Positions 1-56,905 of a DNA stretch of 64,000 nucleotides are shown in pieces. The position numbers and the translations under genes were made by a program. The notes under the pieces were generated by a model that did not search any database, was not told where the DNA came from, and was given only the letters and a program-made list of their open reading frames with translations. Each line of letters opens with the position of its first letter. Position 1 is the stretch's first letter. The stretch is from assembly GCF_054482595.1 (NCBI RefSeq), contig NZ_CM137008.1; one strand, 5' to 3'.

Positions 1-825
1 ATATTCTCCCGGGGTACAACCAAACTCGCGAACAAACGCCTTGTGAAAAGATGATTCACTGGCATAGCCTACTGACTCAGCGATCACCACAACAGGGAGC
101 ATTTCCCGGGAAAACATCTGGGCCGCTATTTGTAGACGCAACTTTGTTAATACAGCCAGCGGCGTGGTTCCGGAAACATCACGGAAAAGCTGGGCAAAAT
201 TTGCCCGGGACATGTGGGCGATGCTGGCCAGCGATTCGACGGTCCAGGCGTGTCCTGGCATTTCCAGCATTTGCTGTATTACCGCACCAAGACGTGGATG
301 CAGAAGCAAACTGAGAATGTTTTTCTCAGTATTAACCTGTGCAATCCACTCACGCACCGCGAGGGTAAAGAATGTAGCGCAGATCTGGCTACACAGAGCA
401 TCCATTCCCGGCATTGCCGATCTGGATTCCTGTTGTAAAAACGGGATCGCCTCCCTCAGCCAGTTATATTCCACGCTGTGGTTAACCGGTGCTAAAAACA
501 GCGTTTCCGGCAAAGACGTTAAAAAATAACGCGCCGAATGTTGCAACCGAAGAGTGCCGCAGACAATACAGGTCGATTCATTATCGACATGACTCAGGCG
601 ATGAGCTGAATTTTGTGGTAGCAGGACCACATTTCCCGGGCGTAATGTAAAAATCTCTCCCGTCGGCATTTCCAGCTTCGCCGCTCCTTGCGTTAACGCA
701 TGCCAACGAATAACCGATAATTCCCCGGCACCATGTGGAAGCTGCCAGTCACTTCCTAACACGCAATTCTTATCGATCGTTCCTTGTGGAGCGTTAAGCA
801 TCAACAAACGGCTAAGGGCATCCAT
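1..825 (-). CDS. rclR: AraC-family regulator RclR, 3' end beyond window start
   Basis: Minus-strand frame starts at 825 (MDALSRLLMLNAPQGTIDK) and runs off the window with an AraC C-terminal motif (FHKAFVREFGCTPGEY) at 1-60; divergent from rclA. Not in ORF track because no in-window stop. Confidence 0.8.
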   Translation of the reverse strand, partial: MDALSRLLMLNAPQGTIDKNCVLGSDWQLPHGAGELSVIRWHALTQGAAKLEMPTGEIFTLRPGNVVLLPQNSAHRLSHVDNESTCIVCGTLRLQHSARYFLTSLPETLFLAPVNHSVEYNWLREAIPFLQQESRSAMPGMDALCSQICATFFTLAVREWIAQVNTEKNILSLLLHPRLGAVIQQMLEMPGHAWTVESLASIAHMSRANFAQLFRDVSGTTPLAVLTKLRLQIAAQMFSREMLPVVVIAESVGYASESSFHKAFVREFGCTPGEY

Positions 826-1050: not shown

Positions 1051-2376
1051 ATGAATAAATATCAGGCAGTGATTATTGGTTTTGGCAAGGCTGGAAAAAC
1101 ATTAGCCGTCACGCTGGCAAAAGCAGGTTGGCGAGTGGCTCTCATCGAACAATCAAATGCAATGTATGGCGGGACCTGTATTAATATCGGCTGCATCCCA
1201 ACCAAAACATTGGTTCATGACGCACAGCAGCACACAGATTTTGTCCGTGCCATACAGCGTAAAAATGAAGTGGTTAATTTTTTACGTAATAAGAATTTTC
1301 ATAATCTTGCAGATATGCCCAATATCGACGTGATCAACGGCCAGGCGGAGTTTATCAATAATCATAGCCTGCGTGTTCATCGGCCTGAGGGAAATCTGGA
1401 GATTCATGGCGAGAAAATTTTTATTAATACTGGTGCACAAACCGTGGTTCCGCCAATTCCTGGAATTACCACCACGCCTGGTGTATATGACAGCACCGGA
1501 TTACTTAATCTAAAAGAATTGCCTGGGCATTTAGGTATTTTGGGCGGCGGATATATTGGCGTTGAGTTCGCCTCTATGTTCGCTAATTTTGGCAGCAAGG
1601 TAACCATTTTAGAAGCAGCTTCGCTGTTTTTGCCTCGGGAAGAACGGGATATTGCTGATAATATCGCGATGATTTTACGCGATCAGGGCGTCGATATTAT
1701 CCTCAATGCCCATGTGGAGCGAATCAGTCACCATGAAAATCAAGTGCAAGTGCATAGCGAGCACGCCCAACTGGCGGTGGATGCACTGTTAATAGCTTCC
1801 GGTCGTCAACCGGCTACCGCTTCGTTACATCCAGAAAATGCCGGTATCGCAGTAAACGAGCGCGGGGCAATTGTCGTTGACAAGCGATTACATACCACCG
1901 CAGACAATATTTGGGCGATGGGAGATGTTACCGGCGGGCTGCAATTTACTTACATATCACTGGATGATTACCGCATTGTACGTGATGAGTTACTGGGTGA
2001 AGGCAAACGTAGTACTGATGATCGGAAAAATGTGCCTTATTCCGTATTTATGACACCGCCCCTGTCCAGGGTTGGTATGACAGAAGAACAAGCCAGAGAG
2101 AGTGGTGCTGATATTCAGGTGGTGACATTGCCTGTAGCTGCAATTCCGCGCGCCAGAGTGATGAACGATACCCGTGGGGTATTAAAAGCGATTGTTGATA
2201 ATAAAACCCAACGTATATTAGGGGCATCACTGCTGTGTGTTGACTCCCACGAGATGATTAATATAGTGAAAATGGTGATGGATGCCGGGCTGCCTTATAG
2301 CATATTACGCGATCAGATATTTACTCATCCGTCGATGAGCGAATCACTCAATGATCTATTTTCATTAGTCAAATAA
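1051..2376 (+). CDS. rclA: Pyridine nucleotide-disulfide oxidoreductase RclA
   Basis: ORF 1024..2376; likely start at internal MNKYQAVIIGFGKAGK (FAD-binding GxGxxG), giving 441 aa; CIPTK redox-active Cys motif. Confidence 0.9.
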   Translation: MNKYQAVIIGFGKAGKTLAVTLAKAGWRVALIEQSNAMYGGTCINIGCIPTKTLVHDAQQHTDFVRAIQRKNEVVNFLRNKNFHNLADMPNIDVINGQAEFINNHSLRVHRPEGNLEIHGEKIFINTGAQTVVPPIPGITTTPGVYDSTGLLNLKELPGHLGILGGGYIGVEFASMFANFGSKVTILEAASLFLPREERDIADNIAMILRDQGVDIILNAHVERISHHENQVQVHSEHAQLAVDALLIASGRQPATASLHPENAGIAVNERGAIVVDKRLHTTADNIWAMGDVTGGLQFTYISLDDYRIVRDELLGEGKRSTDDRKNVPYSVFMTPPLSRVGMTEEQARESGADIQVVTLPVAAIPRARVMNDTRGVLKAIVDNKTQRILGASLLCVDSHEMINIVKMVMDAGLPYSILRDQIFTHPSMSESLNDLFSLVK

Positions 2377-2385
2377 ACTCAAAAT

Positions 2386-2420
2386 CAGACGCCAGAACAA
2401 ATATTCTGGCGTCTCAGAGA
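2386..2420 (+). terminator. Hairpin after rclA (possible attenuator within rclABC)
   Basis: Inverted repeat gacgccag...ctggcgtc directly after the rclA stop; no strong T-run. Confidence 0.35.
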
Positions 2421-2484: not shown

Positions 2485-2721
2485 ATGTTTAAAAAATCCG
2501 TTTTATTTGCAACACTATTATCTGGCGTTATGGCATTTTCCACCAATGCAGATGATAAAATAATTCTGAAACATATCAGCGTCTCGTCAGTATCAGCATC
2601 ACCGACAGTTCTGGAGGATGCCATTGCTGATATAGCCAGAAAATATAATGCTTCATCCTGGAAAGTCACATCGATGCGAATTGATAATAATTCAACCGCA
2701 ACAGCAGTATTGTATAAATAA
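2485..2721 (+). CDS. rclB: Small periplasmic DUF1471 (BhsA/YdgH-like) protein RclB
   Basis: ORF 2470..2721; 78-aa product from MFKKSVLFATLLSGVMA signal peptide; position between rclA and rclC. Confidence 0.8.
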   Translation: MFKKSVLFATLLSGVMAFSTNADDKIILKHISVSSVSASPTVLEDAIADIARKYNASSWKVTSMRIDNNSTATAVLYK

Positions 2722-2732
2722 GGATGTTCACA

Positions 2733-3326
2733 ATGGAAAAATACCTGCACCTGTTAAGTCGGGGAGATAAAATTGGCCTGACATTGATTCGTCTGAGTAT
2801 TGCGATTGTTTTTATGTGGATTGGGTTATTAAAGTTTGTCCCTTACGAGGCAGACAGCATTACACCATTCGTCGCAAACAGTCCACTAATGTCGTTCTTT
2901 TATGAACACCCGGAAGACTATAAACAGTATCTGACTCACGAAGGCGAATACAAACCAGAAGCAAGGGCATGGCAATCGGCCAATAATACCTATGGTTTTT
3001 CCAACGGTCTTGGCGTCGTGGAGGTGATTATTGCTCTGCTGGTTTTGGCTAATCCTGTCAATCGCTGGTTAGGTTTATTGGGAGGGCTGATGGCATTTAC
3101 CACACCGTTGGTAACACTCTCATTTTTAATCACCACCCCGGAGGCATGGGTACCCGCATTGGGTGACGCTCATCATGGTTTCCCTTATTTATCCGGTGCT
3201 GGTCGCTTGGTATTGAAAGATACTCTGATGCTGGCAGGTGCTGTCATGATAATGGCAGATTCGGCGCGGGAAATTCTTAAACAACGCAGTAATGAATCCA
3301 GTTCAACGTTAAAAACTGAATATTGA
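2733..3326 (+). CDS. rclC: Inner-membrane DUF417 protein RclC
   Basis: ORF 2724..3326; hydrophobic helices throughout; third gene of rclABC. Confidence 0.8.
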   Translation: MEKYLHLLSRGDKIGLTLIRLSIAIVFMWIGLLKFVPYEADSITPFVANSPLMSFFYEHPEDYKQYLTHEGEYKPEARAWQSANNTYGFSNGLGVVEVIIALLVLANPVNRWLGLLGGLMAFTTPLVTLSFLITTPEAWVPALGDAHHGFPYLSGAGRLVLKDTLMLAGAVMIMADSAREILKQRSNESSSTLKTEY

Positions 3327-13246: not shown

Positions 13247-13603
13247 CTATTATTTTAGCCACATTATTAGTAACAATGATAATCTGGCTGTATCGAAAAT
13301 AATTCTAAACTTTCAGGAGATTTATTATGAATAAACGTATCCTCACGATTGTGCCATTCTTCTTACCGATATTCTGACACATATCATCAATTTTCGAGTT
13401 TTACTCTTTTCTCCACCATAAAATCAATAAAAGCACGAACTTTAGAGGGCATTCTCATCCGTGATGAAACATAAATATAAAATCCAGGAAATGAAACAGC
13501 CCAATCCTCAAGAATCGGCTGTAACTTGCCCGCATTGATATGTTCAGCGATTGCAAAATCCAGATGTTGAATGATACCCGTTCCATTCAGCGTGGATTTG
13601 CCC

Positions 13604-14509
13604 CTATATTTCCAGACACCTGTTATCACTTAACCCATTACTGGCTTGCTGCCGTAGATATTCCCGTGGCGAGCGATAACCCAGTGCACTATGCGGATGC
13701 CATTCGTTATAATGCTCGAATGCCTCTGCAAGGTTCTTTGCTGCCGTTAACCCGTCTGGTTTGGGCATGACACTGATGTAGTCACGCTTTATCGTTTTCA
13801 CGAAGCTCTCTGCTATGCCGTTACTCTCCGGACTCCGCACCGCCGTGTTCTTCGGTTCAAGCCCCAACATCCGGGCAAACTGCCGTGTTTCATTAGCCCG
13901 GTAGCATGAACCATTATCCGTCAGCCACTCTACTGGAGACGCCGGAAGCTCGTTGCCGAAACGGCGTTCCACCGCTCCCAGCATGACGTCCTGTACTGTT
14001 TCACTGTTGAAGCCGCCCGTAGTGACCGCCCAGTGCAGTGCCTCACGGTCACAGCAGTCCAGCGCGAACGTGACTCGCAGTTTTTCTCCGTTATCACAGC
14101 GGAACTCGAACCCGTCAGAGCACCATCGCTGATTACTTTCTTTCACAGCCACTCTGCCGGTATGTGCCCGTTTCGATGGCGGTACAGCGGGTTTTCGCTC
14201 AAGCAACAGCGCATTCTGGCGCATGATCCGGTAAATACGTTTGGCATTGATCGCAGGCATACCATCAAGTTCGGCCTGTCTGCGAAGCAGCGCCCATACC
14301 CGACGATAACCATATGTGGGCAGCTCTCCGATAACATGGTGTATACGGAGAAGCACATCCGTATCATCTGAGTGACGGCTGCGGCGACCATCTTTCCAGT
14401 CATCGGTTCGTCTGAGAATGACGTGCAACTGCGCACGCGACACCCGGAGACAACGGCTGACTAAGCTTACTCCCCATCCCCGGGCAATAAGGGCGCGTGC
14501 GCTATCCAC
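13604..14509 (-). CDS. insD: IS2 transposase OrfB (InsD, DDE integrase)
   Basis: 301-aa [23 protein letters not shown]... near-identical to IS2 InsD from memory. Confidence 0.9.
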
Positions 14510-14832
14510 TTTTTTGCACGCCCGTATTCAACGGCTTCTTTAAGGAGTTCATTTTCCATCGTTTTTTTGCCGAGCAGGCGCTGGAGTTCTTTAATCTGCT
14601 TCATGGCGGCAGCAAGTTCAGAGGCAGGAACGACCTGTTCTCCTGCGGCCACAGCAGTAAGACTTCCCTCCTGGTATTGCTTGCGCCAGAGAAATAACTG
14701 GCTGGCTGCCACACCGTGTTGCCGGGCAACAAGGGAGACTGTCATTCCCGGTTCAAAACTCTGCTGAACAATAGCGATCTTTTCCTGTGTAGTACGCCGT
14801 CTGCGTTTCTCCGGTCCTAAGACATCAATCAT
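14467..14832 (-). CDS. insC: IS2 transposase OrfA (InsC, HTH)
   Basis: ORF 14467..14877; start at [22 protein letters not shown] (14832); overlaps insD as expected for the frameshift-coupled pair. Confidence 0.9.
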
Positions 14833-15805
14833 CTGCTCTCCAATGACTAGTCTAAAAACTAGTATTAAGACTATCACTTAAATAAGTGATATTGGTTGTC
14901 TGGAGATTCAGGGGGCCAGTCTACAGCGCCATTCGTATCATGCTTTCGTCATCATTAGAAATATACTTACCTGAAACCTCTATTTCGAACTCTTCATTAC
15001 CCCCCACAACATTAGAAAACTCCCATGCAGAGAGTGCACCGCTACTTTTATGCCGCAACCGAAGGCAATTATGGTTACTCAGTTCCTGAGGCGTTTCAGG
15101 AATACCGTGTTCTTTTAAATAATCTGGCGATGCCACAGTAACCAGTTTAATAAGCGGAGAAACAGGAACGGCAGTCATATGCTCATCCAGTCCTTGCTCA
15201 AGACGTATGCCCACATCACAGCCGTCCGCAATAATGTTAGATAAACCGTCATCCATAATGAGTTCTATCTTTGTTTTGGGGTAACGAGTAAGAAACTCGC
15301 CAATATGAGGCTCAACAAGCATCCGTGCTGCAACACGGGAGGAATTTATTCTCAACAGGCCTGTAGGTTCAAGTTGGGTATCACCAACATCTTTCAAAGC
15401 ATCATCAATTTGCCCCAAAGCCGACACCAGCACTTCATACAGACGCTGTCCTTCCTCAGTAAGCGACATATTGCGGGTCGTACGGTATATCAGCTTGGTG
15501 TTAAGACGTTCCTCAAGAGATTTTAAATTCTGGGACAATGCGGCCCGCGTAATACCCATTTCAGAAGCGGCTCTGGAAAAACTGCCGGCACGAACAATCA
15601 GCGCAAACCAGGCAAGAGAAGGCAAAATTGAAGGCTCTATTTTCATCATTGTAAACCTTAACTTAACACTGTGATAGATATTAGACCATTGATGATAACC
15701 AATACAAGTCATACTATTACGCCGTTCTCGATATGAACACGAATGCCAGTTGCGGATAATAGAAATGATATTTAAATCTGTTTAGGCAAATCCCCGGAGC
15801 TTGAA

Positions 15806-18576: not shown

Positions 18577-18678
18577 ATGAAAGAGAATAAAGTACAACAA
18601 ATCAGTCATAAACTGATTAATATCGTTGTTTTTGTCGCAATTGTAGAATACGCCTATTTATTTCTCCATTTCTATTAA
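18577..18678 (+). CDS. ykgR: Small 33-aa membrane protein YkgR
   Basis: ATG 18577 to TAA 18676-18678; MKENKVQQISHKLINIVVFVAIVEYAYLFLHFY; not in ORF track (below size cutoff); degraded paralog at 37927. Confidence 0.6.
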   Translation: MKENKVQQISHKLINIVVFVAIVEYAYLFLHFY

Positions 18679-27987: not shown

Positions 27988-28020
27988 GCCCCGCCAGCGA
28001 TAATAGCGGGGCTTCGTTTT
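27988..28020 (+). terminator. Rho-independent terminator after ykgJ
   Basis: gccccgccagcgataatagcggggc followed by ttcgtttt. Confidence 0.6.
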
Positions 28021-28169
28021 CAGGGACAACAAAACCCGAAACTTCTTGTATTTGCCAGCAACAATGCCTCTCTTCTGTAGCGTTCTTCGGATCTACATCA
28101 TCCTGAAGTAGCGCGATATACTCACTGACTATCTGAATCAGAATATAAAAAGCAATGTTTTTAACCTAT

Positions 28170-28199
28170 AAAAATGGCGCTGTATTTGCGCCATTTTTA
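28170..28199 (-). terminator. Rho-independent terminator after yagU
   Basis: aaaaatggcgctgtatttgcgccattttt; symmetric A/T runs. Confidence 0.6.
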
Positions 28200-28211
28200 T
28201 CATTCAATGCA

Positions 28212-36816: not shown

Positions 36817-37701
36817 ATGGCGAAAAGGGAGAACTACAACGAGCTGTACCTGTTTATGCAGGTGGTGCGGGAAGGCAGCTTTACCGCAGCGGCTCAGCGG
36901 CTGGGTCTTGCTCAGTCAGGAGTCAGCCGTTCTGTTCGCGAGCTTGAAGAAAGGCTGGGTGTCCAGCTGCTAGTGCGCACCACGCGTAAACTGTCGCTGA
37001 CACAAGCAGGCGAGCAGCTCTACCAGAAGACGGCATCTGGATTTGAAATGTTAGATCTTGGGCTTGCCACACTGGCGCACTATCGAGAGACGCCCTCCGG
37101 CACGGTGCGTATCAATGCCAGCCAGCACGCGATTGATAAATGCCTGCTGCCAAAGCTGGCGGTATTTAAACAGCGATATCCTGATATCCGGCTTGAACTG
37201 ATAAATGAGAGCCGGTTCGTCGATATCATCGAGGAAAGATTCGATGCAGGTGTCCGCCTGGGGCCTGAAGTCGGCCAGGGTATGGTCGCGGTACGCATCA
37301 CGCCCGATATGGAGATGGCAATTGTGGGGACTCCGGAACATTTTCGTCGCTATGGTTTTCCGCAAACTCCGGCGGATTTAAAGGCGCATCCCTGTATCGC
37401 CTATCAGTTTGCCGACGGCAGCGTATACCAGTGGGAACTCAATCAGGATGATAAAAAAATCACTCATCGCCCTGAAGGACAATGGGCCCTATCCGACAGC
37501 TATATGGAAGCAGAAGCCGCCCGGCTGGGCCTCGGATTGGCCTATGTTCCTGTTGAACTGGTCGCGGATGATTTAGAACACGGTAAGCTTATCAGGGTGT
37601 TGCAGCGTTACAGCCTGCGAATGGAGGGATTGTTTCTCTATTACCCTCATCGCAACGTCTCCCCCGCCCTGCGGATGGTCATTGATACATTGAAAATCTG
37701 A
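36817..37701 (+). CDS. LysR-family transcriptional regulator
   Basis: 294-aa ORF divergent from the hydrolase-MFS pair; HTH FTAAAQRLGLAQSGVSRSVRELEERLGVQLLVRTTR. Confidence 0.85.
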   Translation: MAKRENYNELYLFMQVVREGSFTAAAQRLGLAQSGVSRSVRELEERLGVQLLVRTTRKLSLTQAGEQLYQKTASGFEMLDLGLATLAHYRETPSGTVRINASQHAIDKCLLPKLAVFKQRYPDIRLELINESRFVDIIEERFDAGVRLGPEVGQGMVAVRITPDMEMAIVGTPEHFRRYGFPQTPADLKAHPCIAYQFADGSVYQWELNQDDKKITHRPEGQWALSDSYMEAEAARLGLGLAYVPVELVADDLEHGKLIRVLQRYSLRMEGLFLYYPHRNVSPALRMVIDTLKI

Positions 37702-37926
37702 ACGTTAATAACGACCGACTCTTCACTGTGCAAAATTGTGTCAGGTAATCCCTCTGCGTTCAATTCCAGGGTCTGCTTTGAGCGAGAAAGATCAGACTTA
37801 TCTGTACAAGGGGACTATCCAGCAATGGAGATCATCCAAAAGAAAAAACCACCTGGCTCCCCTCGACAACCTTAATCCGGGCATTTAGCCTCAATCAACA
37901 TTTTCATATCTGTCAGGTTACTTCAT

Positions 37927-38200
37927 TATGAAAACCGATCAATATCGTTGTTTTTGTTGCAACAGTAGAATACGCGTATTTATCCCTCCATTTCTATTAA
38001 TAACGGCAATAAACTGTTCATTTCACTGATATTTAAAATATGCATCCTTTTCAAGCTGTTCAGCGGCATAAGAAAACGTATTAAATATGAATTCGACGAT
38101 TTAACCATTTCTGTCTGATTGGTAATCATCTGTGATTAATGCTGGTCTATTGATTACGCCAGCATTAACCGCTTAGGGATGTATTCTTCCTGTTGATATA
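37927..38200 (+). repeat. Degraded paralog of the ykgR-ykgM-ykgO locus
   Basis: 37940-38040 aligns to 18625-18725 (about 90% identity by eye); 38050-38085 resembles the last codons of ykgO; 38090-38200 resembles the terminator region 19450-19560; the ykgR-like frame is disrupted. Confidence 0.6.
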
Positions 38201-38403
38201 CAGCCCTCGAAAAAGAGAGAAAATAAAACTGTGTCCAATATTACTCTACCACTCCAGACCGAAGCATCGGTAGAATTAGCAGAACGACTGGTACAATAGA
38301 TTGGGATAGCGTCATTTGTCAGGTATTCCATTGCCTGACAAATGACAATTTTGAGTCAATAGACGTGCTTCTTGATCATGTCTTAAAAATTATACCATGA
38401 GCC

Positions 38404-38676
38404 TTATGAAGCATCATTTTTACTGACTGGTGTTAATTTTGCTATCATATAAACTCTGTTCTTAAAAAACGCGCCCAGAATTTTATATGATTTCCCTTGT
38501 TTTTCTGCCTGTAAAGAAATTTCTTTTTCAGTGCTGTCAATGGTTGAACCGACGGCAGTAATCGTTTTGGCGACGCTACTGAATGATAATAAAGACAGTG
38601 TAACAACAACAATTAAAGAACAGATAGTATTCACGCTAATTCTCCTGACAATTGAGAGGATGAGTTTTATATACAT
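38404..38676 (-). CDS. Small secreted DUF1471 (BhsA/YdgH-like) protein
   Basis: 90-aa ORF; hydrophobic signal segment then motif TIDSTEKEISLQAEKQGKSYKI typical of the family; compare rclB. Confidence 0.55.
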   Translation of the reverse strand: MYIKLILSIVRRISVNTICSLIVVVTLSLLSFSSVAKTITAVGSTIDSTEKEISLQAEKQGKSYKILGAFFKNRVYMIAKLTPVSKNDAS

Positions 38677-38846
38677 AGGTATTAAACATGAGTCATATTT
38701 ACCCCAAGAGAAAATACTCCTTCTGTAATTAAACCTTCATCTCCTTCGGGGTGAGCAATACATAATACATCTTGCTATGAAAACACAGGGATATATAAAT
38801 CTTCCTTCTGACCTATTTAATAAAACGTGAATGTAAAAATTATTCT

Positions 38847-39088
38847 TCAGTTTGCAGATGCAGTGGGTCTGATGGTAATTTCGGTTGTATCAACGCTTTC
38901 GGGAGATTCAATAATATGCCTTACAGCACGGGCAATATCCGCGGGTTGAAGTGCAACAGAACGGTAGGCGTCCATTGCCTTCATGGTTTCCACATGGGTA
39001 ATGGTTGAAGCCAGTTCACTTTCGACAACGCCAGGATTTACGCAGGTCACACGGATTTTCGAGCTTTCTTGCCGTAAGCCATCAGAAA
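38847..39088 (-). pseudogene. 3' fragment of a short-chain dehydrogenase/reductase gene
   Basis: Frame encodes only an SDR-like C-terminal tail (NPGVVESELA...TEITIRPTASAN); the N-terminal Rossmann part is absent and its position is occupied by the next fragment. Confidence 0.45.
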
Positions 39089-39091
39089 TAG

Positions 39092-39526
39092 CCCGTACTG
39101 CAAATCAGGCAGCGTGAAATGGTCGTTGCCTCTCCCTCCTATCTCGCAGCCAACAGCACACCTGTTCATCCGCGTGAACTTGTGAATCATAAGTGTATCG
39201 GCTGGCGTCAATCCCCGGATGTTGCGCCTTATCGCTGGCCATTTGAAGAAAACAGGAGAGCTTTCGACCTTGCGATTGAACCGCAGATTACGACTAATGA
39301 TCTGCGTCTGATGTTGAGGCTGGCTCTTGCCGGCGGAGGAATAACAATTGCCACTCAGGAAACTTTCAGGCCATATATTGAAAGCGGTAGGCTTGTATCT
39401 CTGCTTGATGACTTTCTTCCACAATTTCCGGGCTTCTATCTGTATTTCCCACAGCGTCGCAATATTGCACCAAAGCTCCGCGCCCTGATTGACCACGTCA
39501 AGGAATGGCGGCAGCAATTGGCTTAA
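39092..39526 (+). pseudogene. 3' fragment of a LysR-family regulator gene (effector domain only)
   Basis: Open frame from 39092; encodes MVVASPSYLA...FPGFYLYFPQRR (LysR C-terminal domain) with no HTH; abuts the SDR fragment head-to-head. Confidence 0.6.
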
Positions 39527-39652
39527 ATGTCTGCACCTGCATTGCCTGATGTCAGAACAGTATTTTGATTAATTGCCAGGGTTACAATGGCATAAATACG
39601 GCACAGGAGGAAACGTGGTGTATTTGAATATGGGGTAACTACTTGATTTAAA

Positions 39653-39728
39653 TGGTGCCGATAATAGGAGTCGAACCTACGACCTTCGCATTACGAATGC
39701 GCTGCTCTACCAACTGAGCTATATCGGC
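39653..39728 (-). tRNA. thrW: tRNA-Thr (anticodon CGT)
   Basis: Reverse complement GCCGATATAGCTCAGTTGGTAGAGCAGCGCATTCGTAATGCGAAGGTCGTAGGTTCGACTCCTATTATCGGCACCA; cloverleaf with CGT anticodon and CCA end. Confidence 0.9.
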
Positions 39729-39842
39729 CCTGAAAGGACATGTTCACGAACGTGAATCACGGTGGACAAGGTTAAAACTAACCGGGCGATGCGTCAATGG
39801 CCTTGTGAATCAAACGGCTACTTTTGCATCACCCGGTTTTAT

Positions 39843-41096
39843 TTACGCACGAATGGTGTAATCACCAATGCCGATCCACTTGTAAGTGGTCAGTGCTTCC
39901 AGCCCCATTGGGCCACGCGCGTGGAGTTTTTGTGTGCTTACCGCCACTTCCGCACCCAGTCCAAACTGGCCGCCGTCGGTAAAACGCGTAGAGGCGTTAA
40001 CGTAAACAGCGGACGAATCCACTTCGTTAACAAAACGCTGGGCGTTGCGCATATCGCGGGTCAGGATCGCATCGGAGTGTTGTGTGCCGTGTTCACGAAT
40101 ATGGGCGATGGCATCGTCAAGATCGCTGACGATTTTGACGTTCAAATCTAATGACAGAAACTCATCGTCATACTCTTCAGCTTTAACCGCCACCACCTTC
40201 GCAGGGCCTGCCTGCAACTGTGTCAGCGCAGCTGCATCTGCGTGTAATGTCACGCCGCTTTCCGCCATTTGTTTGCTTAATGCGGGCAGGAAGCTATCGG
40301 CGATGTTTTTATTCACCAGCAACGTTTCTACCGTATTACATGTGCTCGGACGCTGAGTTTTCGCGTTGACGATCACTTTTAATGCTTCAGCGATCTCTGC
40401 ACTTTCATCAACGTAAATATGGCATACGCCTATACCACCAGTGATCACCGGGATCGTCGACTGTTCACGGCACAGTTTATGCAAACCAGCGCCACCACGC
40501 GGGATCAGCATGTCGATGTATTTATCCATACGCAGCATTTCACTGACCAGCGCACGGTCAGGATTATCAATCGCCTGCACGGCACCCGCCGGTAAGCCAC
40601 AGGATTTCAGGGCGTCCTGAATCACCGCTACCGTTGCCGCGTTAGTGCGACAGGTTTCTTTGCCACCACGCAGGATCACCGCATTACCGGTTTTCAGGCA
40701 CAGCGAAGCGACATCAACCGTCACGTTCGGGCGCGCTTCATAAATCACGCCAATAACCCCCAGCGGTACGCGACGACGCTCAAGACGCAGGCCGCTGTCC
40801 AGTACGCCGCCATCGATTACCTGCCCCACCGGATCGGCGAGGTTACACACCTGGCGTACATCGTCGGCAATGCCTTTCAGCCGTGCGGGCGTCAGTGCCA
40901 GACGGTCAAGCATCGCTTCGCTAAGGCCATTGGCTCGCGCGTCAGCAACATCCTGGGCGTTAGCGTTGAGGATGATTTCGCTTTGTGCTTCCAGTTCATC
41001 GGCGATTTTTTCCAGCACGCGATTTTTTTCGCGGCTGGAGAGTTGCGCTAATTTATACGAGGCTTGCTTCGCGGCAATGCCCATTTGTTCCAGCAT
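39843..41096 (-). CDS. proA: Gamma-glutamyl phosphate reductase
   Basis: 417-aa ORF recognised as ProA. Confidence 0.9.
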
Positions 41097-53479: not shown

Positions 53480-53575
53480 ATTCGCGGGCTCGTAGGCATG
53501 ATAAGACGCGCCAGCGTCGCATCAGGCACCTGCGTACAACTGCCGGATGCGGCGTAAACGCCTTATCCGTCCTAC
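53480..53575. repeat. REP elements
   Basis: tcgtaggcatgataagacgcgccagcgtcgcatcaggc...gccggatgcggcgtaaacgccttatcc. Confidence 0.85.
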
Positions 53576-56759: not shown

Positions 56760-56905
56760 GAATTTTCAGGTCGGATGCGGCGTGAACGCATTATTCGGCC
56801 TACGGTTCGCGTACAGATTTGTAGGCATGATAAGACGCGTCAGCGTCGCATCAGGCATCGGTGCACAATTGCCGGATGCGGCGTAAACGTCTTATCCGGC
56901 CTACG
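56760..56905. repeat. REP/BIME cluster
   Basis: tcggatgcggcgtgaacgc...gtaggcatgataagacgcgtcagcgtcgcatcaggc...gccggatgcggcgtaaacgtcttatccggcctacgcc. Confidence 0.85.

Follow-up and report, generated by a model that had tools for sequence, protein, structure and literature searches.

The stretch of DNA analysed here (64,000 nucleotides, the window throughout) likely carries two members of the DUF1471 family: the known gene rclB and, near thrW, a divergent mini-DUF1471 gene that a deletion has orphaned from its cassette. Both ORFs had been picked out in an initial annotation made from the sequence, and both are present, rclB at 2485..2721 on the plus strand and a 90-aa ORF at 38404..38676 on the minus strand. 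The window is a segment of E. coli chromosome with the order rclR-rclABC ... pao ... thrW-proAB; from left to right, its genes include rclR (cut by the edge), rclA, rclB, rclC, fdeC, ykgR, ykgMO, the ecp operon, paoABCD, thrW and proAB. Strain XH990 is 100% identical to the window around 37700-39850, and, as a 99.99% identical strain, served as the source of the rclA annotation. The coordinates of rclR and rclC were carried over from the XH990 annotation, in which rclR lies at L003 1307..2161, an offset of 1336 bases relative to the window.

rclB is a textbook member of the rcl operon

The left end of the window contains the following features:

1..825, minus strand: rclR, reactive-chlorine-specific AraC-type activator, truncated by the window start (XH990 mapping)
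1051..2376, plus strand: rclA, flavoprotein oxidoreductase (HOSCN / Cu(II) reductase), first gene of rclABC (ORF and XH990 PGAP annotation)
2387..2414, plus strand: hairpin with an 11-bp stem between rclA and rclB, without a T-run behind it (read from the sequence)
2485..2721, plus strand: rclB, 78-aa DUF1471 periplasmic protein, signal peptide MFKKSVLFATLLSGVMAFSTNA/DD, where the slash marks cleavage (HMM scores)
2733..3326, plus strand: rclC, DUF417 inner-membrane protein (XH990 PGAP annotation mapped onto the window)

rclB runs from ATG 2485 to TAA 2719-2721 and sits between rclA and rclC, with rclR divergent from rclA, as seen in the window and in the XH990 annotation. Its product matches the NCBIfam model NF040474 (peri_RclB) over its full length (1-78 of 78) with 153.3 bits against a cutoff of 100, and passes the PF07338 gathering cutoff of 27 with 45.9 bits; together with the rclR-rclABC context, these scores bear out its earlier assignment to the DUF1471 family. 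rclB is a textbook gene, with no departure from the known one. RclB has been described as a cysteine-free periplasmic DUF1471 protein encoded in the RclR-activated rclABC operon, in which RclA is the HOSCN / Cu(II) reductase and RclB and RclC are both required for resistance to HOSCN and HOCl; rclB and rclC mutants have similar HOSCN sensitivity, and an outer-membrane-porin model for RclB was tested and found unsupported (PMC12096828). The hairpin between rclA and rclB might relate to the levels of rclB and rclC mRNA, which are lower than that of rclA mRNA (PMC12096828). A scan against Rfam gave no match near rclB or the second gene.

The second gene probably encodes a 76-aa precursor

We assign the following features to the second gene and the DNA immediately upstream of it:

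38404..38634, minus strand: most likely coding sequence of the second gene, a 76-aa precursor of a putative divergent mini-DUF1471 protein (start and Shine-Dalgarno conservation)
38635..38682, minus strand: N-terminal extension of the maximal ORF (from 38676) and the PGAP model (from 38682), probably untranslated (frame unconserved)
38642..38646, minus strand: Shine-Dalgarno sequence AGGAG, 7 nt before GTG 38634 (read from the sequence)
38569..38634, minus strand: predicted signal peptide, codons 1-22 (MNTICSLIVVVTLSLLSFSSVA), cleavage A22/K23 (hydrophobicity, alignment and model)
38407..38568, minus strand: predicted mature 54-aa domain, with a beta-alpha-beta-beta core at precursor residues 24-68 (model and composition)

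The maximal ORF encodes the 90 aa that had been taken as the product, and PGAP extends it to 38404..38682 as a "hypothetical protein" (WP_024227134.1); the orthologue in O157 Sakai is ECs_0307. When we compared alleles and aligned the upstream DNA of six loci, an internal start was found in all of them, GTG 38634 in the window and ATG in most other alleles, always behind a purine-rich Shine-Dalgarno sequence. The frame of the N-terminal extension, by contrast, is lost in cryptic-clade Escherichia and in the cassette of P0146, the closest relative. Because the extension is unconserved and the internal start and its Shine-Dalgarno sequence are conserved, the likely product has 76 aa, and the true start is probably GTG 38634. 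The annotated long form, of 90 or 92 aa from 38676 or 38682, is used by PGAP and many database entries, and its extension adds K/RR residues that could form a signal peptide n-region; its start codon varies, however, and the sequence holds no Shine-Dalgarno sequence before ATG 38676, which, with the lost frame, makes it very unlikely that the long form is the real product. K-12 YkgL, considered as an identity for the ORF, was rejected, the two sequences being unrelated.

Homologues with at least 60% identity to the second gene occur in Escherichia and Shigella only, and 436 of 5426 complete E. coli genomes (~8%) carry its DNA, with O157:H7, O55:H7 and O145 represented among them. The Nei-Gojobori method gives a dN/dS of 0.14-0.32 over the full coding sequence and of 0.12-0.32 when restricted to the mature part, at a dS of 0.31 relative to cryptic-clade Escherichia and 0.93-1.0 relative to the P0146 cassette, the same as for the neighbouring genes; omega is 0.04-0.08 for the SDR gene next to it (0.17 for the closest pair) and 0.04-0.08 for the LysR gene. 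Contigs with an intact allele far outnumber those with a frameshifted one. This pattern of substitution points to a real coding gene under moderate constraint. Of the alleles P0020, P0021 and P0059 in other E. coli strains, some have a frameshift that is compensated, with the helix residues DSTEKEISLQAEKQGK changed to NSTEKNFFTGRKQGK and the remainder in frame, and others are truncated after homopolymer runs.

Transitive evidence places the second gene in the DUF1471 family

The initial annotation had assigned the second ORF to DUF1471 and had named an HMM search for family motifs and an alignment with RclB as checks. Searched directly, the ORF stays below threshold: it scores 14.1 bits (E 0.05) against PF07338, under the cutoff of 27, in a partial match to profile positions 8-40 of 55, and BLASTP gives no alignment with RclB at E<=100. 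P0146 likewise has no match to PF07338 at E<=0.01. The best NCBIfam match of the ORF is BhsA (NF047859), at 19.2 bits against an equivalog cutoff of 90; the ORF is therefore not BhsA, and the name "BhsA" given by JGI to allele P0030 is unjustified.

The assignment itself stands by an indirect route. In an exhaustive HMMER profile search, 60 of 1.84 billion representatives matched at E<1e-3, almost all of them 68-73 aa long; library-wide E-values went down to 1e-20 and 1e-13 for relatives that pass Pfam. Four of them, P0091, P0093, P0094 and P0095, were reached by the full profile at E 4e-13 to 3e-12 in 1.8 billion proteins and score 33-38 bits against PF07338, above its cutoff; overall, 35 of the 41 aligned subfamily members match PF07338 at E<=0.01, and the Pfam-passing relatives carry a DUF1471 annotation in Enterobacter and Pantoea. 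As a control for the signal peptide, a profile of the mature part only still found Pfam-passing members, at E 9e-9 to 1e-5 on the scale of the whole library. The homologues are confined to Enterobacterales: Escherichia and Shigella, with named relatives in Enterobacter, Pantoea, Atlantibacter and Klebsiella. P0103 and P0130, which matched the profile in multiple stretches, were rejected as spurious; they are pentapeptide / tachylectin-like repeat proteins with no PF07338 match.

The same subfamily alignment connects the ORF to RclB. With it, hhalign pairs ORF residues 24-69 with RclB residues 35-78 at 91% probability (E 1e-6) and ~21% identity, and a subfamily HMM run over the 781 six-frame ORFs of the window matches, besides the second ORF, the rclB frame alone. 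A shallow, Escherichia-only alignment gave nothing in hhalign against RclB, and the corresponding profile gave nothing against PDB sequences; the wider profile gave weak PDB matches only (2jna, 2ma4 and 2noc, E 0.07-0.24).

The published DUF1471 fold is alpha+beta, with an antiparallel sheet (strand order 2-4-3-1) under one long helix. From the 41-sequence alignment, AlphaFold2 predicts a signal helix (residues 3-19), a strand (24-29), a second helix (32-45) and two further strands (49-57 and 61-68), with a pLDDT of 84 and block means of 89-96 in the core; the model has no counterpart to the short strand and helix with which canonical DUF1471 structures begin. A first AlphaFold run on a shallow alignment gave a poor, all-helix model (pLDDT 60) and was discarded. 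Foldseek comparison with the PDB gave nothing below E 0.07, with 4evu at rank 19.

That the ORF is no gene at all and resembles DUF1471 by chance might be read from its sub-threshold Pfam score, the missing BLASTP match to RclB and its "hypothetical protein" annotation. This reading is extremely improbable: the library-wide E-values of the Pfam-passing relatives, the purifying selection and the confident fold prediction all count against it, as does a gene order kept across cassettes (see below) in which the small protein is only 37-58% identical. The profile search, selection and synteny effectively refute it. We conclude that transitive profile, fold and selection evidence identifies the second gene as a real, highly divergent DUF1471 gene.

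The product is predicted to be exported

In its 76-aa form, the protein begins MNTICSLIVVVTLSLLSFSSVA/KTITAV, with a hydrophobic core SLIVVVTLSLL (mean KD 2.73), Ser at -3 and Ala at -1 (S-V-A/K), and its cleavage position aligns with A/Q or A/K in 41 subfamily members. The n-region, however, contains no Lys or Arg. The core and the cleavage site make plausible the cleavable signal peptide that the initial annotation had called for, and we infer a Sec signal peptide cleaved after Ala22, which would release a basic periplasmic protein. The predicted mature protein has 54 aa (56 in mature RclB), a mass of 5.9 kDa, a pI of 9.6 and no Cys.

The lack of basic residues in the n-region would also fit an uncleaved signal anchor, with the product tethered to the inner membrane rather than soluble in the periplasm, and one source names allele P0032 a "putative membrane protein". 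The small residues at -3 and -1 are nonetheless conserved, the 41 relatives whose cleavage position aligns have normal MKK-type signal peptides, and characterised DUF1471 family members are soluble periplasmic proteins according to the literature, so that an anchor is unlikely and cleavage remains our preferred reading.

The second gene belongs to a LysR/SDR cassette

Upstream of the second gene, the window contains:

38847..39104, minus strand: 3' fragment of an SDR gene, C-terminal 85 codons of 240 (PGAP pseudogene; intact in O145, O157 and the cryptic clade)
39105..39106, no strand: deletion junction, 1041 bp lost (BLASTN against O145)
39107..39526, plus strand: 3' fragment of yagP, LysR substrate-binding domain (PGAP pseudogene; intact as ECs_0305 in Sakai)
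39653..39728, minus strand: thrW, tRNA-Thr (CGU) (ARAGORN and Rfam tRNA)

The second gene comes third in a conserved cassette: a LysR-type regulator gene (yagP) is divergent from a gene for a 240-aa SDR oxidoreductase, and the mini-DUF1471 gene follows the latter. The cassette is intact in O145, O157 (LSU61 and Sakai) and cryptic-clade Escherichia, where the small gene lies 213-221 nt downstream of the SDR gene; in Sakai, the intact LysR gene is yagP (ECs_0305, 299 aa), divergent from the SDR gene. Homology searches assigned no substrate to the SDR protein, whose best solved relative is the uncharacterised 3tfo, followed by clavaldehyde dehydrogenase.

This arrangement replaces two parts of the earlier description. 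The second gene had been placed in a stress-linked context, and its actual context is the LysR (yagP)/SDR cassette, broken here by the 1041-bp deletion. It had also been placed in a "thrW island", which is a misnomer: thrW is indeed nearby, but the interval from thrW to the ORF contains neither an integrase nor an island, and the ORF is on the chromosomal side of the attachment site at thrW. In Sakai, prophages Sp1 and Sp2 occupy the interval from thrW to yagP and so separate thrW from the block, which puts the second gene outside the integrated elements.

The closest outside relatives are P0146 (58% identity to the ORF), P0089 (48%) and P0092 (44-47%, depending on allele and method). Their loci have the same layout, LysR gene divergent from SDR gene followed by the small-protein gene, and then an 81-aa Atu4866-like gene; the surroundings of these cassettes differ widely and include prophage tails, CP4-57-like islands and two-component systems. 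In cassettes of this non-Escherichia type (L010, L022 and L023), the Atu4866-like gene (PF11512, 120 bits) has no signal peptide and always comes after the small gene. No remnant of it was found downstream of the second ORF in the window, and it is absent from the thrW-paoD version of the cassette. Across cassettes, identity is 80-98% for LysR, 83-98% for SDR, 37-87% for the small protein and 63-70% for Atu4866, a pattern indicating that the cassette moves as a unit and that both of its small genes are fast-evolving. Other subfamily members are stand-alone in unrelated contexts, and the link to SDR is therefore clade-specific.

A 1041-bp deletion has broken the cassette in this strain

BLASTN shows that the O145 segment L004 5407..6447 is missing from the window. 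The deletion took the divergent promoter region between the SDR gene and yagP along with the 5' half of each of these genes, and left the small gene and its 212-nt upstream spacer intact. Among 5426 complete E. coli genomes, 24 share the identical junction; the deleted segment is kept (at least 80% coverage) in 386 genomes. With regulator, SDR gene and promoter region deleted, expression, if any, could come only from a promoter in the 212-nt spacer. A promoter scan upstream of the second gene and a terminator scan around it gave nothing above chance, and the DNA between the SDR fragment and the small gene has no terminator-like hairpin. The spacer does contain blocks that are invariant across cassettes at a dS of ~1, for example TTAATTACAG. 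In the literature, ECs0307, ECs0306, ECs0305 and the protein accessions gave no real match; the single one obtained was the KEGG code "ecs03070".

We conclude that the second gene is probably weakly expressed or silent in this strain. A stronger form of this reading, which we regard as possible though less likely than its alternatives taken together, holds that the gene is a silent relic, intact by chance since the deletion and on its way to becoming a pseudogene. The loss of the LysR-SDR divergent promoter region, the position of the small gene on the same strand as the SDR gene with no terminator-like hairpin between them, the upstream promoter-like sites at chance level, the frameshifted alleles known in other strains and the absence of the whole block from K-12 all fit such a relic. 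On the other hand, the ORF is intact in genomes that carry the deletion and whose flanking DNA differs by up to ~2%, and the invariant blocks of the spacer could be a promoter of its own. The question concerns expression only and is compatible with true DUF1471 membership. Since the module is broken, the physiological relevance of the gene in this strain is probably small.

Comparison with known DUF1471 systems

In length class, the second protein resembles the short (68-73 aa) DUF1471 proteins of Enterobacterales, such as Enterobacter WP_248243945 (P0091) and Pantoea ananatis P0175, annotated as "YdgH/BhsA/McbA-like domain containing protein". It shares with them the signal peptide end A/Q or A/K, a mature domain that begins at the first long strand, and the motif xTxSAxxSTLDxAExxIAxxAxxxGxSYKIxxAxxxNxVYMTAxL. 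None of these short proteins has been characterised. Unlike the Enterobacter and Pantoea proteins, the window protein, P0146, P0092 and P0089 fall under the Pfam cutoff; all four terminate in ...VYMIAKL plus a tail, whereas the short Enterobacter and Pantoea proteins end in ...HMTAELYK. The Enterobacter and Pantoea genes are also stand-alone, between lpxH and purE or beside an MCP gene, and not behind an SDR gene.

RclB (YkgI) and the second protein are alike in being small DUF1471 proteins without Cys, exported by Sec (as predicted for the second) to mature forms of 54-56 aa, and both genes lie directly downstream of a gene for a cytoplasmic oxidoreductase that is divergent from an activator gene. 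The components differ: the regulator is AraC-type RclR in one and LysR-type YagP in the other, the enzyme is the flavoprotein RclA as against an SDR, rclB is followed by rclC (DUF417) and relatives of the second gene by the Atu4866-like gene, and the low identity given above separates the small proteins themselves. The HOSCN/HOCl phenotype has been demonstrated for RclB (PMC12096828) and not for the second gene.

BhsA/YcfR, the multiple stress resistance protein, is the nearest model in NCBIfam and lent its name to one allele, but it has 85 aa, an extra N-terminal strand and helix, and another locus. Domains I and III of YdgH/SssB, SrfN and YahO (2m2j, 4evu, 2jna/2ma8 and 2ma4) are only 12-19% identical to the second protein, whose model, unlike these structures, is without strand 1 and the short helix; YdgH itself has three domains.

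A possible role for the cassette

In the mechanism we propose, translation from GTG 38634 behind AGGAG would give the 76-aa precursor, and Sec export with cleavage after Ala22 would yield a periplasmic protein of 54 aa, basic and built on the beta-alpha-beta-beta core of the family. The layout of the cassette mirrors that of the rcl locus, in which rclR is divergent from rclA and followed in turn by rclB and rclC, and by this analogy the small protein would most likely be an envelope-side accessory of a LysR-induced carbonyl/redox detoxification response. It might act by binding a partner in the periplasm or the outer membrane, the mode of action proposed for BhsA and YjfN; BhsA is reported to lower envelope permeability and YjfN to engage DegP (PMC12096828). 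Any stress role for the second gene is suggested by analogy with these proteins.

More speculatively, and with considerable doubt on our part, the cassette, with or without the Atu4866-like gene, could be a self-contained, horizontally mobile, two-compartment defence module on the rcl plan, which may obligatorily join a cytoplasmic oxidoreductase to a periplasmic DUF1471 partner that evolves fast. If so, the combination of an oxidoreductase with a DUF1471 protein would be a general design, and the cassette a second, simpler system in which to solve DUF1471 function.

E. coli K-12 is said to have 10 DUF1471 paralogues, and we know of none with an established mechanism. The second gene would be a further paralogue, overlooked by Pfam, and its fixed place behind a LysR-controlled SDR gene offers a testable handle comprising regulator, enzyme and periplasmic partner, which could help to make sense of the family and, within it, of the role of RclB. 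For annotation, we suggest that the start codon be corrected and that "hypothetical protein" or "BhsA" be replaced by "divergent DUF1471".

Other features of the window

A ykgR remnant lies close to the second ORF, as the initial annotation had noted:

37932..38000, plus strand: ykgR remnant, C-terminal 22 codons, KPINIVVFVATVEYAYLSLHFY followed by a stop, convergent with the small gene (PGAP and translation)

A full ykgR copy at 18577..18678 and the remnant are in direct orientation ~19 kb apart, with ykgMO, ecp, ykgJ, yagU, paoABCD and genes for an MFS protein, a hydrolase and a LysR protein between them. In cryptic-clade Escherichia, a full ykgR occupies the position of the remnant, directly after the small gene and followed by a LysR gene and aldo/keto reductase genes; given this arrangement, the ykgR-bracketed segment looks like an insertion or deletion mediated at ykgR. 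Positions 38048..38197, which directly abut the ykgR-like stretch, are 73.5% identical to the K-12 ykgL / ykgO 3' end region, as if the two together were an old ykgR-ykgL copy without ykgMO. Between the small gene and the ykgR remnant, an inverted repeat at 38311..38346 with a 15-bp stem (GTCATTTGTCAGGTA...TGCCTGACAAATGAC) scores as terminator-like on the plus strand only.

Elsewhere, a 1331-bp IS2 copy at 13593..14923, flanked by a 5-bp target duplication, interrupts a LysR-family regulator gene; its InsC/InsD-like ORFs are at 14467..14877 and 13604..14509 on the minus strand, and the copy is absent in XH990. Rfam matches at gathering level comprise, all on the minus strand, the IS009 sRNA at 28008..28206 (183.6 bits) and two naRNA4/CssrE copies at 53495..53572 and 56824..56901 (73-77 bits).
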